From Candidatus Saccharimonadales bacterium (lineage in GTDB: Bacteria > Patescibacteriota > Saccharimonadia > Saccharimonadales > JBBQAJ01): a stretch of 64,000 nucleotides of DNA. Below, one piece after another: positions 5,764 to 51,895 of this stretch. The stretch is taken from assembly GCA_038206875.1 (NCBI GenBank), contig JBBRAK010000004.1:3174-67173 (forward strand), read 5' to 3'. The position numbers were made by a program, and so were the translations under genes. Each line of letters starts with the position of its first letter. Within the stretch, counting starts at the first letter, position 1. The notes beneath the pieces are model-generated. The model was not told the DNA's origin. It worked only from the letters and a program-made list of their open reading frames with translations, and ran no database searches.

Positions 5764-5990
5764 TGTCAGGTTCAGGACCAGAATGTTTAGGAGCAAAATG
5801 TCAAGTATTTCTTGAGTGCGTGCAGGCTGAAAACGATATCATTGACACCGGTGCACTTCGGTCGGAACCGGAAATGGCTGATTATAGTGCACAAACCGAA
5901 GTTGCTCGTAAATGCTCTGAGATGGGTGGATGCACATTAAGAAGTGAACTTGTTGTGGAATTAGAATCGGAGCAACAACATGCCTCGTAA
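5763..5990 (+). CDS. hypothetical 75-aa acidic Cys-rich protein filling the rpsL-rpsG spacer
   Basis: ATG overlaps the rpsL stop (TAATG, 5761-5765). Its stop lies 11 nt inside rpsG. The ORF spans the whole gap. Cys at 8, 13, 19, 51, 57. No recognisable family. Confidence 0.5.
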   Translation: MSGSGPECLGAKCQVFLECVQAENDIIDTGALRSEPEMADYSAQTEVARKCSEMGGCTLRSELVVELESEQQHAS

Positions 5991-36142: not shown

Positions 36143-37021
36143 ATGGAAAAAGCAATTGTTAGCGGAGAGGTTGTAGATAAAAACCTTGTGGTCATACCAA
36201 TAGATAATAAAGGGTACTTTTTTGATTTTTGCGTGTATTCGACCATGAAAGTATTGCAAGGCAAGCTTTTTTTCCCGGATTTCCACGCAGAGCGGATTAT
36301 TGAGTCAGCCAACTTGCTAGGTATTAAACACAATTTAAATGTGTCGGATGTTTCTAAATGGCTAGCTAAGCTGGTAAAAGTAAACAAATATGAGAATTCT
36401 TTAATTCGAATGGTACTGGTCGGCGATCCTGATGATGTTGAATACGGTAGTTTATATATTTTTGCGGTAGGCTCACTCACTTTTTATCCTAACAAATTCT
36501 ATACCGGAGGCGTCAAAGTTATCACATATCCAGGTGAACGGCTTGTGCCAAAAGCAAAATCAAAAGACTTACTTTTGTCAGCTCTAGCGTACAGAGAAGC
36601 AAAAAAACACGGTGCATTAGACGCACTACTTGTTGACAATAACGGAAATATCCGAGAAGGAACTAGAACAAACTTTTTTGCAATAAGAGGCAACCAGCTG
36701 ATAACTCCACCTGCTGAGCAGGTTTTGGGTGGGATAGTTCAAAAATTAGTAATAAAACTATCGAAACCTGACTTTGAAATTGTACGTGAAGATATCCCAC
36801 TTCTCAAAATTGAAGAATACGATGAGTTCTTTATGACCAATACGAGCATGAACGTCATGCCTATCAATCAAATAGACGACCATAAGTTTGTTTCAAATTT
36901 TCCAAAAACCAAACAAATCCAAAAACTACTAAAACACTACTACAAAACCAATAATTTGATGCATAGTTATCTACCAACTACGAACGATATTCCGCACCCA
37001 ATAATACCACTATCTAATTAG
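36143..37021 (+). CDS. class IV aminotransferase (BCAT / D-aminotransferase / ADC-lyase family)
   Basis: EGTRTNFFAIRGNQLITPP, VLGGIVQ, fold-type IV pattern. Subfamily not resolvable by eye. Confidence 0.75.
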   Translation: MEKAIVSGEVVDKNLVVIPIDNKGYFFDFCVYSTMKVLQGKLFFPDFHAERIIESANLLGIKHNLNVSDVSKWLAKLVKVNKYENSLIRMVLVGDPDDVEYGSLYIFAVGSLTFYPNKFYTGGVKVITYPGERLVPKAKSKDLLLSALAYREAKKHGALDALLVDNNGNIREGTRTNFFAIRGNQLITPPAEQVLGGIVQKLVIKLSKPDFEIVREDIPLLKIEEYDEFFMTNTSMNVMPINQIDDHKFVSNFPKTKQIQKLLKHYYKTNNLMHSYLPTTNDIPHPIIPLSN

Positions 37022-37682
37022 TGGTCGCTTCGCGGCTTCTTACAAACAGCTCTGCGGTTGAAAAAATAAAGTCCTGGCCGATATGTTGTAGGTCAAAATT
37101 TCGAGCATCCTTTTCATCACGATCATAATGAGTATAATGCCAATTGCGGACTCTATGTGGTACTAAACCAGCGGCAATTGAAGCCGGGACTGCAAAAAAT
37201 AAAAACCTAGCCTTTTGGGTTAATGAGGCATCATCTTGTATGGCAACTCTACCAATTTTTAGAATTAAGTCGCTCATGCGTTGCCTTCTTCGACCCTCAC
37301 CAACCTCTGGACGATCTAAAAAATGTGAAGTTTCGTGGCGTAGAATACTGCTTAGTTCGGGGAAAAACTCCGGATGAATGACTATAACTGAACGACCCAA
37401 CAGATGCATGTCAGGATCTAATTCTTTGCTCCTAAAATTAGTTGTGTAATATCCTTTTATTTCAATGCCCTCAGGGTCAGACAAATCGGGCTGAGGGGCG
37501 AAAACAACGCATAAATCAGTTATTTGCTCATCTGTCGCGCCCTGGGTTCGTAAAAAATCGGAATAGCCTTCAATATCTATACCTATATCCACCAAATTAC
37601 CTACCGGGGTTTCTAAACCATATGTGCTTATGCTAGTTAAAACTGTAGGAGCTGTTTCTGGCCAACCTACTTGAGTCGTCAT
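37014..37682 (-). CDS. hypothetical protein with HExxH motif (putative metallopeptidase)
   Basis: LRHETSHFL. C-terminal hydrophobic stretch FLFFAVPASIAAGLV. Converges on and overlaps the aminotransferase gene by 8 nt. Confidence 0.7.
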   Translation of the reverse strand: MTTQVGWPETAPTVLTSISTYGLETPVGNLVDIGIDIEGYSDFLRTQGATDEQITDLCVVFAPQPDLSDPEGIEIKGYYTTNFRSKELDPDMHLLGRSVIVIHPEFFPELSSILRHETSHFLDRPEVGEGRRRQRMSDLILKIGRVAIQDDASLTQKARFLFFAVPASIAAGLVPHRVRNWHYTHYDRDEKDARNFDLQHIGQDFIFSTAELFVRSREATTN

Positions 37683-37718
37683 AAAACATATTATAACATT
37701 ATGCGATACCTAAGTAAA

Positions 37719-37891
37719 TGGTGCAGGGTGTAAGATATCACCACCTTCGTGGCTCTTTCGCTGTGCCGTGCTCGAAGTAAACTTCTGCGCGTGTGCTCGC
37801 TCCACCGAACCTTAAATTGCTGTGCAATCATGCCCTAGCAGCCCACAGCCTAAACCAATTAAAAAATCCAGCTTTGGCTGGATCTATTAAT
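37719..37891 (-). repeat. insert downstream of tRNA-Tyr ending in an 18-nt copy (17/18) of the tRNA 3' end
   Basis: TGGTGCAGGGTGTAAGAT (37719-37736) versus the tRNA copy at 37892-37909. The interior shares blocks (GCTCG..TAAAC, TTCTGCGC, CCGAACCTT) with the insert at 37999-38148. Confidence 0.75.
37861..37883 (-). terminator. intrinsic terminator after tRNA-Tyr
   Basis: On the minus strand: ATCCAGC CAAA GCTGGAT followed by TTTTT. Confidence 0.75.
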
Positions 37892-37977
37892 TGGTGCAGG
37901 GTGTAGGATTCGAACCTACGAAGGCATAAGCCGACAGATTTACAGTCTGTTGTGTTTGACCGCTTCACTAACCCTGC
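37892..37977 (-). tRNA. tRNA-Tyr (GTA), long variable arm, CCA encoded
   Basis: Manual fold: acceptor GCAGGGT/ACCCTGC, anticodon loop CTGTAAA, T-arm GTAGG TTCGAAT CCTAC. 86 nt. Confidence 0.93.
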
Positions 37978-37978
37978 G

Positions 37979-38148
37979 TATGGAGCCACCTGTCGGATAT
38001 CGCACGGCTACGCCGTACTCCTTCCTGCGATGCTCGTAAACAAGAAATATATTTCATGTTTTCTGCGCTTCTCGTCCGCCGAACCTTCGGTTCTCATCAG
38101 ATCATTCGCATAATTATTGTAACAAGTATTTACTTCTTACAATAATTA
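37979..38148 (-). repeat. insert downstream of tRNA-Thr(TGT) ending in an exact 18-20-nt copy of the tRNA 3' end
   Basis: TATGGAGCCACCTGTCGGAT (37979-37998) is identical to 38147-38166. The identity breaks inside GATATC, at the same T-loop position as the Tyr-linked insert. Confidence 0.75.
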
Positions 38149-38149
38149 T
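38110..38149 (-). other. long AT-rich hairpin immediately after tRNA-Thr(TGT)
   Basis: ATAATTATTGTAA (38110-38122) / TTACAATAATTAT (38137-38149), a perfect 13-bp inverted repeat. Confidence 0.6.
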
Positions 38150-38225
38150 GGAGCCACCTGTCGGATTCGAACCGACGACCTACTGTTTACAAAACAGTCG
38201 CTCTAACCAACTGAGCTAAGGTGGC
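38149..38225 (-). tRNA. tRNA-Thr (TGT), CCA encoded
   Basis: Manual fold: acceptor GCCACCT/AGGTGGC, anticodon loop TTTGTAA, T-arm GTCGG TTCGAAT CCGAC. 77 nt. Confidence 0.93.
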
Positions 38226-51683: not shown

Positions 51684-51835
51684 TTGACCACGTAGTGTTT
51701 CTCTGTTAAGCTCTACTCACGTTACCAAAGACAGCGACGACTGTAAAAGGTTTGATAATGTCGCCTAGGTGCAAGCTAACTTTTTGTTTGTAAGCATGTT
51801 TTTATGGCCCTTTGGTAACACCAAAGGGCCTTTTT
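51684..51835 (+). promoter_or_regulatory. rplJ (L10) leader with antiterminator/terminator
   Basis: TTGACC (51684-51689), 17-nt spacer, TAAGCT (51707-51712). GTTACCAAAG (51721-51730) is perfectly complementary to CTTTGGTAAC (51810-51819) in the terminator GGCCCTTTGG TAACA CCAAAGGGCC TTTTT (51806-51835). Confidence 0.65.
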
Positions 51836-51895
51836 GGTAGTTTTTGGAGTTGACAGGTCGAAAACTTCATACTAAATAATCTAAAGGAGAAGCCC

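Follow-up and report, generated by a model that had tools for sequence, protein, structure and literature searches.

The stretch of DNA studied here, 64,000 nucleotides of a Candidatus Saccharimonadales genome (contig JBBRAK010000004.1, positions 3,174 to 67,173; hereafter the window, from whose first letter coordinates are counted), contains two adjacent genes, for tRNA-Thr(TGT) and tRNA-Tyr(GTA), each followed by an insert that ends in a copy of that tRNA's own 3' end. We propose, with a confidence that we put at about even, that the two inserts are subtypes (A and B) of one family of small, protein-less, non-autonomous integrative cassettes with a structured RNA. Judged from sequence comparisons, the hosts of this family are Saccharibacteria and related bacteria of the Candidate Phyla Radiation (CPR). 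The proposal is built on the common anatomy and family membership of the units, on covariation in their predicted structure, on sites that are occupied in some genomes and empty in others, on tandem arrays, and on the lack of linked mobility genes. A cassette would consist of a hairpin or terminator rooted in the CCA of the tRNA, a core of ~100 nt, and a tail that copies the tRNA from the T-loop to the CCA.

Anatomy and folding of the two inserts

All elements of the locus lie on the minus strand. The tRNA-Thr(TGT) gene (38149-38225; ARAGORN, and 75.1 bits with the Rfam tRNA model) is followed by the hairpin H(Thr) (38109-38150), an AT-rich inverted repeat with 20-nt arms (38109-38128 and 38131-38150, 95% complementary) and a stem rooted in the CA of the tRNA's CCA; it lacks a U-tract, and a promoter scan places a weak promoter-like site (TTGTAA-18-AATAAT) inside it. 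The type A core (GAGAACCG...GCGAT; 37999-38095) comes next, defined by a covariance-model match (37981-38095, 133.9 bits), by pair counts and by alignment, and ends in the tail ATCCGACAGGTGGCTCCA (37981-37998), an exact copy of positions 59-76 of tRNA-Thr. Three nucleotides (TAC) separate this tail from the start of tRNA-Tyr(GTA) (37892-37977; ARAGORN and Rfam tRNA), behind which lies H(Tyr) (37842-37891), an intrinsic terminator identified by a terminator scan (stem 37864-37885 and U-tract) and by minimum-free-energy folds. H(Tyr) is lengthened by an 'anti-tail', UUGGUUUAGGCUGUGGG (37842-37858), which is complementary to the 3' end of tRNA-Tyr, and a 31-nt inverted repeat (81%) underlies the two together. 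The type B core (AAGGTTCGGTGGAGCGAG...GGTGAT; 37737-37822) was assigned from a covariance-model match (37719-37822, E=0.004), from its relatives in loci L008 and L002 and from shared motifs; its tail, ATCTTACACCCTGCACCA (37719-37736), is a 17/18 copy of positions 59-76 of tRNA-Tyr. At the first base past this tail begins a sigma-70-like promoter (TTTACT-17-TATAAT preceded by TG, 37690-37718; promoter scan, 10/12 matches), which faces a 222-aa open reading frame (ORF; 37014-37682) and thus marks the distal border of the cassette.

The direct repeats are formed by the last 18 nt of each gene (38149-38166 for tRNA-Thr, 37892-37909 for tRNA-Tyr) and the corresponding tail. In the case of tRNA-Thr the identity extends over 20/20 positions (37979-37998 and 38147-38166; the 18 nt and TA), and in that of tRNA-Tyr it is 91% between 37715-37736 and 37888-37909. 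Both tails span T-loop position 59 to the terminal CCA. By simple arithmetic, an exact 18-mer is expected to recur by chance within ~170 nt at a rate of ~1e-9. An independent assembly (L045, Logan SRR19962010) is base-identical across the tRNA-Tyr insert, which rules out an assembly artefact. The two cores share the blocks AAGGTTCGGYGGA and GCGCAGAA..TTTAC..GAGCA, each of which occurs exactly twice in the 64 kb, where 0.07 and 0.00 occurrences are expected. The units, of 150-185 bp, contain no conserved ORF. These results bear out much of a preliminary description of the locus, which had identified both tRNAs and their 3'-end copies, let the two repeats start at the same place in the T-loop, noted the AT-rich hairpin after tRNA-Thr and the terminator after tRNA-Tyr, and pointed to blocks common to the two cores, with neither a conserved ORF in the inserts nor an integrase nearby.

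That description had seen no obvious conserved helices in the cores, a point that we revise: helices exist, and they carry compensatory changes. The type A core is laid out as GAGAACCGAAGGUUCGGCGGACGAGAAGCGCAG, a hairpin, CGAGCAUCGCAGGAAGGAG, a second hairpin, GCGAU and the tail, and the type B core, homologous to it through the invariant blocks, as AAGGUUCGGYGGAGCGAG..GCGCAG, a hairpin, CGAGCAC...purine run, a second hairpin and the tail. The window holds one copy of each. The elements predicted for its type A copy are helix P1a (38089-38093 with 38081-38085), a small GCG/CGC hairpin (38077-38079 with 38065-38067), the variable hairpin P2 (38036-38063), whose loop is UAUA here and UUUA in most copies, helix P2b (38027-38031 with 37999-38003), which encloses the purine bulge AGGAAGGAG, and hairpin P3 (38004-38016). 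Type B has its own P2 (GAAG-UUUA-CUUC) and its own P3 (CCAC-GAAG-GUGG).

With a covariance model built on type A, every A and B copy was found again, together with two new ones. On the covariance-model alignment, standard pairs fill 91% of the cells as compared to 76.5% in shuffles, 0/500 of which reach the observed value, and 15 of the 24 pairs show changes on both sides; with partners slid by 1-3 columns as a control, 22-40% of the cells are paired. Most compensatory changes sit in P2 and in the last hairpin, P3, while P1a has no both-side variation and a U-to-C variant in P2b (AUCGC/GCGAU) produces C-A in four copies. When all families are considered, including those described below, the sense strand outfolds the antisense strand in 17/17 units. 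The tRNA-sense strand is likely the functional one and, as far as the sequences allow us to judge, the core probably folds on it into four or five hairpins with invariant single-stranded blocks between them.

Searches of Rfam 15 at gathering and permissive thresholds matched only tRNAs, and the cores remained unmatched at E<=10 (window) and E<=5 (L021). Three resemblances to known RNAs were followed and dismissed, Rfam giving no match in any of them. CUGAUGAG is similar to a hammerhead core, but the motif is not conserved in other copies; GGACGAG..GCGC resembles the guanidine-III riboswitch over 8-14 nt only, and the pseudoknot partners are absent; and the block GGAAGGAG recalls the signal recognition particle RNA.

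Relatives, arrays and empty sites

An exact-pattern scan of the core across 185,579 species genomes returned nine loci (L001-L009), eight of which come from further Saccharibacteria or other CPR genomes; the ninth (L006, Trueperaceae) is a chance match. The core lies behind tRNA-Thr(TGT) in L004 and L009, behind tRNA-Tyr in L005, L007 and L001, behind tRNA-Leu(GAG) in L003 and behind an initiator-type tRNA-Met in L008. In L002 no tRNA adjoins the core, and the tail is a 13/18 match to a tRNA-Gln whose gene is located 5.7 kb upstream. In the other seven loci (L001, L003-L005, L007-L009) the tail is the local tRNA's own 3' end, starting at T-loop position 58-59. Direct repeats of a tRNA 3' end at both ends of the insert were found in at least 15 units outside the window, the more distal tails being decayed in L004, L005, L054 and L002. 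Full-length relatives carrying the core were not found in the 185,579 genomes (with the pattern used), in IMG/VR or among phages: IMG/VR scans for types A/B and for the families X and Y introduced below gave nothing, and phage BLAST returned tRNA-Tyr genes only. The sole match of a metagenome scan (L010) was judged to be due to chance. We found no description of the phenomenon in the literature.

Loci fetched through homologues of ribosomal protein L33, and hence unbiased as to the core motif, revealed two other families, X and Y, that have no sequence similarity to A or B. Family X occurs in L021 (twice), L054 and L004, and family Y in L021, L054 and L029. Their units are built in the same manner, with a hairpin rooted in the CCA, then 100-130 nt of structured core and a tRNA copy that runs from T-loop position 55/56 to the CCA. 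They stand behind tRNA-Tyr, with the exception of one Y unit behind tRNA-Trp (L029), so that an appendix of this kind is found at tRNA-Leu and tRNA-Met for A/B and at tRNA-Trp for Y, in addition to the tRNAs of the window.

Units also occur in tandem. L021 contains the array X-Y-X' with an exact period of 185 nt, and L054 the array Y-X. In L001, a 56-aa ORF and a cupredoxin ORF are interspersed among three type A copies, the third of which follows an ORF and amounts to no more than the 3' half of the core and a 16/18 tail. The 56-aa ORF (L001:3708-3878, minus strand) carries CxxC...C motifs reminiscent of a zinc ribbon and lies between two type A units; it is followed by a shortened tail, GCTGCACCA, and a similar ORF fragment is present downstream of tRNA-Tyr in L009 (~5900-5950). 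Two nuclease ORFs were seen close to tRNA genes. A 107-aa HNH endonuclease ORF (L021:1221-1544) ends 3 nt before tRNA-Thr(TGT) and heads the X-Y-X' locus, and an 81-aa GIY-YIG ORF abuts tRNA-Trp in L011 (4352-4597), L014 (3341-3586) and L017 (661-906) and is absent in L012 and L013, in a comparison of genomes that share one L33 protein.

Occupancy of the sites varies. Most L33-anchored loci are packed Thr/Tyr/Thr clusters without units (L035-L044, L064, L068, L074 and others), and the Thr-Tyr spacer measures 9-15 nt in L005 and L007 as opposed to ~170 nt in the window and in L009. Among genomes with one common L33 protein (L027, L028 and L029), the position directly after the CCA of tRNA-Thr is taken by 58 nt and a 13-nt tail in L027 and by nothing in L029, and the Y unit behind tRNA-Trp is present in L029 and absent in L027 and L028. 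Over all loci, a copy of the last 13 nt with no more than one mismatch, located up to 1.5 kb downstream, accompanies 11/145 tRNA instances and none when tails are shuffled, a count that does not represent a frequency since L001-L009 were chosen by motif. The preliminary description had considered an arrangement invariant among relatives, with neither empty sites nor copies elsewhere, and this is clearly not what the genomes contain. A Thr-Tyr spacer of another kind was encountered in L021 (1624-1836), L027 (5637-5732) and L029 (3443-3538); it has TGCGAGAGTGTCTAAA in common, folds strongly (z = -6.4 in L021) and lacks a tail, and may be another small RNA or a decayed unit.

In some units the tail pairs with the core. 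Units of family Y are closed by a helix between the core's 5' end and the tail's first 8-9 nt, and its two strands differ with the identity of the tRNA: it is formed by GGGACUUG and CAAGUCCC for tRNA-Trp, and by AGGGGUUCG and CGAAUCCCU or GGGAUUUGA and UCGAAUCCC for tRNA-Tyr. The T-loop of tRNA-Trp is not palindromic, and the 5' strand of Y at this site is the complement of the tail rather than a copy of the T-arm. In the type A copy behind tRNA-Leu (L003), the otherwise constant GGAAGGAG is changed to GGGAGG, which pairs with CUCCU of the Leu tail; in L007 and L001, GCAGGA pairs with UCCUGC; and in the Tyr unit of the window and in the Y unit of L021 the anti-tail that follows the hairpin is able to pair with the whole tail. 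When duplex energies between tail and body were compared to those of shuffled tails, only L003, L008, the window Tyr unit and the L021 Y unit stood out, most units being unremarkable, which indicates that a tRNA-like minihelix of acceptor and T-arm is not a general feature of the tails. A GCAGG acceptor mimic considered for the L021 X unit is not conserved in the X unit of L004.

Entry into tRNA genes and competing explanations

In the mechanism that we envisage, the cassette would enter when its tail recombines, in a reciprocal exchange of Campbell type, with the identical 3' end of the tRNA gene in the chromosome. An intact tRNA would thereby be rebuilt, with the cassette's own hairpin next to it and a second copy of the tail at the far end; repeated entry would produce tandem arrays, and recombination between the two tail copies would lead to precise loss. 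As the units lack a recombinase of their own, they would be mobilised in trans, most likely by the site-specific recombinase of a co-resident element. Alternatively, RecA could act on DNA taken up by competent cells, with tRNA and tail providing the homology; Saccharibacteria have natural competence, are transformable and integrate DNA by homologous recombination, with arms of ~1 kb in the transformation experiment reported (PMC10633639). The core would be a structured RNA transcribed with the tRNA or just after it. With co-oriented tRNAs on both sides and a hairpin that lacks a U-tract, the Thr unit would be part of a Thr-Tyr precursor, from which the usual maturation of tRNA 5' and 3' ends could free it, RNase P cleavage 3 nt past the tail setting its 3' side. 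The Tyr unit would need read-through or a promoter of its own, because a canonical terminator precedes it.

Several junctions retain details of how the units may have arrived. The repeat of L003 is 55 nt long and includes the terminator, which suggests that the copied unit is DNA, comprising the tRNA end and its flank. L008 shows a hairpin behind the tRNA that is unlike the terminator behind the tail, as if the first had come with the cassette and the second were native. In the X-type unit behind tRNA-Tyr in L004 (1043-1230, minus strand), whose CCA is lost, the tail carries the T-stem CCCTCT of another tRNA-Tyr allele, whereas CCTACA, matched by its 5' strand, stands in the resident gene, pointing to exchange 3' of position 66; this unit is either a fossil or evidence of a crossover in the acceptor part of the tail. 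Tails on the same tRNA-Tyr start at positions 55, 56 or 59 depending on the family. Two simple origins of the tail were rejected on such grounds: a reverse-transcriptase stop at a modified T-loop base, since tail starts vary among families on the same tRNA, and a plain target-site duplication, since repeat length varies and the L008 cassette hairpin is unlike the native terminator.

A Pfam search detected no recombinase within ~4 kb of the inserts in the window, nor next to the units in L001-L009 and L021, and neither a transposase nor a reverse transcriptase adjoins any copy. An island was nevertheless found at a tRNA end in L002, where two genes abut tRNA-Gln (L002:78-2587): one encodes a Rep protein of rolling-circle type (REP_ORF2-G2P/RepSA-like), the other a large serine recombinase with the domains Resolvase, Recombinase and Zn_ribbon_recom, and the latter's ORF overlaps the tRNA, on the opposite strand, with its 3' end. 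The tRNA-Gln end recurs 5.7 kb downstream, on the L002:5824-5997 side, as an 18-nt copy (13/18, the last 11 nt exact) that is directly followed by a type B unit. This appears to be an integrated element of ~5.7 kb, and it indicates that recombinase-bearing elements use the tRNA ends of these genomes. Of the tyrosine-integrase footprint put forward in the preliminary description, the tRNA-3' repeats are present, but the only recombinase seen at such a site is of the large serine type.

A number of observations weigh against the proposal of non-autonomous cassettes. No recombinase adjoins any unit or is tied to the family; a double-stranded circle of 150-185 bp is very small for site-specific integration; and one core family carries the tails of at least 4-5 tRNAs, a variety that sequence-specific integrases seldom permit. 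Presence and absence can reflect deletion mediated by the repeats and not gain. The alignment used to score covariation was fitted to the model, and strand asymmetry within the stems is modest (11 G-U cells versus 5 A-C cells), so that a fold in RNA is not strictly told apart from one in single-stranded DNA or even on the opposite strand. Even so, of the three origins offered in the preliminary description, a miniature element mobilised in trans fits best with the empty sites, the occurrence of one core behind several tRNAs, the arrays and the lack of a nearby mobility gene.

Another of those origins, a functional RNA that reuses the tRNA 3' end, is partly supported by the structured core and by the tail start of family Y, which supplies one side of the closing helix and varies in concert with the tRNA. 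Taken as a full alternative to a mobile element, it would make the units a family of host small-RNA genes, in which the tail, with the anti-tail where there is one, mimics the acceptor and T-arm of a tRNA so that processing enzymes excise and stabilise the RNA, differences among genomes being due to duplication and repeat-mediated loss. Besides the features just named, the invariant blocks of the core agree with this, as do the change to GGGAG in the Leu copy, and the position of the Thr unit 3 nt before tRNA-Tyr, where RNase P must define its 3' side. We nevertheless find such a host gene family rather unlikely, because processing does not require a tail that matches the adjacent tRNA, pairing of the tail is in most units no better than with shuffled tails, and 0-3 copies per site, four unrelated core families at the same site and one family behind different tRNAs, with most relatives lacking it, are unlike a housekeeping RNA. 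The third origin, decayed att scars, regards the inserts as inert: they would be the attR-side arms left behind by larger islands or prophages that had integrated at the tRNA and then lost their bodies. A T-loop-to-CCA repeat is indeed the classic att footprint, the recombinase-bearing L002 island possesses such a tail, and older, distal tails are decayed. This explanation seems very improbable to us: cores keep invariant blocks and covarying hairpins across distant genomes and different tRNAs, no full-length carrier of the core turned up in the searches above, and the attR side of the L002 island has no such core.

The folded cores that end in a tail could also be single-stranded analogues of attC, with the tRNA 3' end as attI, cassettes with or without an ORF stacked behind the tRNA, and a recombinase encoded elsewhere. 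Unrelated core families with one architecture, closed by pairing with the start of the tail, would be expected in this case, and it would accommodate the better folding of one strand, the arrays that mix RNA-only and ORF-bearing units ending in tails or remnants (L001; L021 at 2959-2969) and the ORF in L001 behind which stand just the 3' half of one type A core and a tail. That this is the correct explanation is quite unlikely, given that no locus has an IntI-like gene beside the tRNA, that the cores contain no RYYYAAC/GTTRRRY sites and have long invariant unpaired blocks unlike attC, that ORFs past the tails carry their own promoters, and that the tail remnants after ORFs are short and statistically weak. 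As small, in our estimation, as the chance of inert scars is that of a guide or primer RNA, either an omega RNA of TnpB/Cas12 type aimed at the tRNA gene, with TTCGA of the T-loop as adjacent motif, or a tail generated by tRNA-primed or tRNA-copying reverse transcription. The geometry would be suitable (a scaffold of ~100 nt, a hairpin, ~5 nt and an 18-nt 3' segment identical to the target), the tail ends exactly at the CCA in nearly all units, and type A/B tails begin at position 59, the primer-binding site of retroviruses being 18 nt long, up to position 58. However, TnpB, IscB, Cas proteins and reverse transcriptase are found near no unit, a nuclease guide would be self-targeting since the intact tRNA keeps both motif and target, the variable tail start on one tRNA-Tyr is not set by a modified base, the terminator within the L003 repeat speaks for copying at the level of DNA, and Rfam omega-RNA families are unmatched. 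A last and broader idea, which we consider unlikely, is a tRNA-anchored cassette platform of CPR bacteria analogous to integrons, in which the folded modules A, B, X and Y would be recombination sites whose fold spans the crossover region, and in which RNA-only and ORF cassettes would be captured and stacked at tRNA genes, either through a recombinase whose gene lies elsewhere or through an RNA-dependent step employing the tail.

The units share traits with several known systems. As in islands integrated at tRNA 3' ends by tyrosine or serine recombinases, the insert lies between T-loop-to-3'-end direct repeats, an intact tRNA is regained through the element's copy, elements accrete in tandem at one tRNA and occupancy is polymorphic; unlike such islands, the units described here are gene-less, measure 150-185 bp, have a conserved folded module as their body, and belong to a core family with tails of several tRNAs. 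Cis-mobilizable elements are decayed integrative and conjugative or integrative and mobilizable elements that kept attL and attR and lost their integration and transfer genes (PMC5704250). They resemble the cassettes in having att repeats at the target gene's end and no recombinase of their own, in standing in tandem with other elements and in moving only with help, but they are kilobase-scale remnants without a conserved structured core, whereas the core seen here is under selection and recurs as a family. Att-like repeats are present in our units and mobility genes absent, and a parent element with the core was not found in the same searches.

Integron cassettes, some of them without an ORF, are likewise small units arrayed at one site, with structured, sequence-diverse ends whose fold involves the recombination point. 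Here, the units are anchored at a tRNA gene, the array is not accompanied by IntI, attI or Pc, its neighbours being the DNA polymerase III delta' subunit, a TPR protein and L33, and the attC consensus is absent from the cores. Miniature inverted-repeat transposable elements and palindrome elements derived from IS200/IS605 are comparable in size class, lack of coding capacity, strong secondary structure and dependence on factors in trans, and the omega RNA of TnpB also has a scaffold followed by a 3' segment equal to the flanking target. They differ in that the units here have no fixed short target duplication (repeats of 13, 18, 20-22 and 55 nt) and no consistent terminal inverted repeats, anti-tail/tail pairing being seen in some units only; in addition, an autonomous parent was not found and the target stays intact beside the element. 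No tnpB or iscB lies near the units, the intact tRNA keeps the T-loop and the target, and Rfam gave no match. The cassettes are set apart by their size, their covarying folded core, the several unrelated cores that follow one architecture, and the tails of multiple tRNAs.

If our proposal is correct, these would be, as far as we know, the smallest tRNA-targeting integrative units described. Their body would be a conserved folded RNA, joining features of a genomic island, a miniature transposable element and a small-RNA gene, and they would add four or more new structured-RNA families to the very few non-coding RNAs characterised in CPR bacteria. In these tiny genomes, the tRNA-Thr/Tyr site would stand out within the ribosomal-protein region as a hotspot of gene capture. 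A further question is which trans-acting enzyme accepts one core with many tRNA tails; a tRNA-anchored integron-like or RNA-dependent capture system, if real, would be categorically new. Because Saccharibacteria can be transformed (PMC10633639), direct testing is possible, and the units might serve as natural landing pads.

Neighbouring genes in the window

The window covers a region of ribosomal-protein, EF-Tu, RpoA and NusG genes. The neighbours of the tRNA cluster are the DNA polymerase III delta' subunit, a TPR protein, a class IV aminotransferase, the 222-aa ORF, L33, an AAA_33 kinase and YgjP; integrase, transposase, reverse transcriptase and TnpB were not found among them. Homologues of L33 assign the window to Saccharibacteria; its exact L33 sequence has no record in the protein collection. 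Between the TPR gene and the tRNA cluster lie the aminotransferase IV gene and the 222-aa ORF (36143-37682). Many relatives (L035, L064, L074) have the TPR gene directly next to the tRNAs. The stretch downstream of tRNA-Tyr looks like a gene-capture hotspot, its contents being different in L021, L027, L029 and L054. Elsewhere in the window, an ordinary ribosomal protein L10 leader (Rfam RF00557, 54.3 bits; 51707-51844) is located upstream of the L10 gene.

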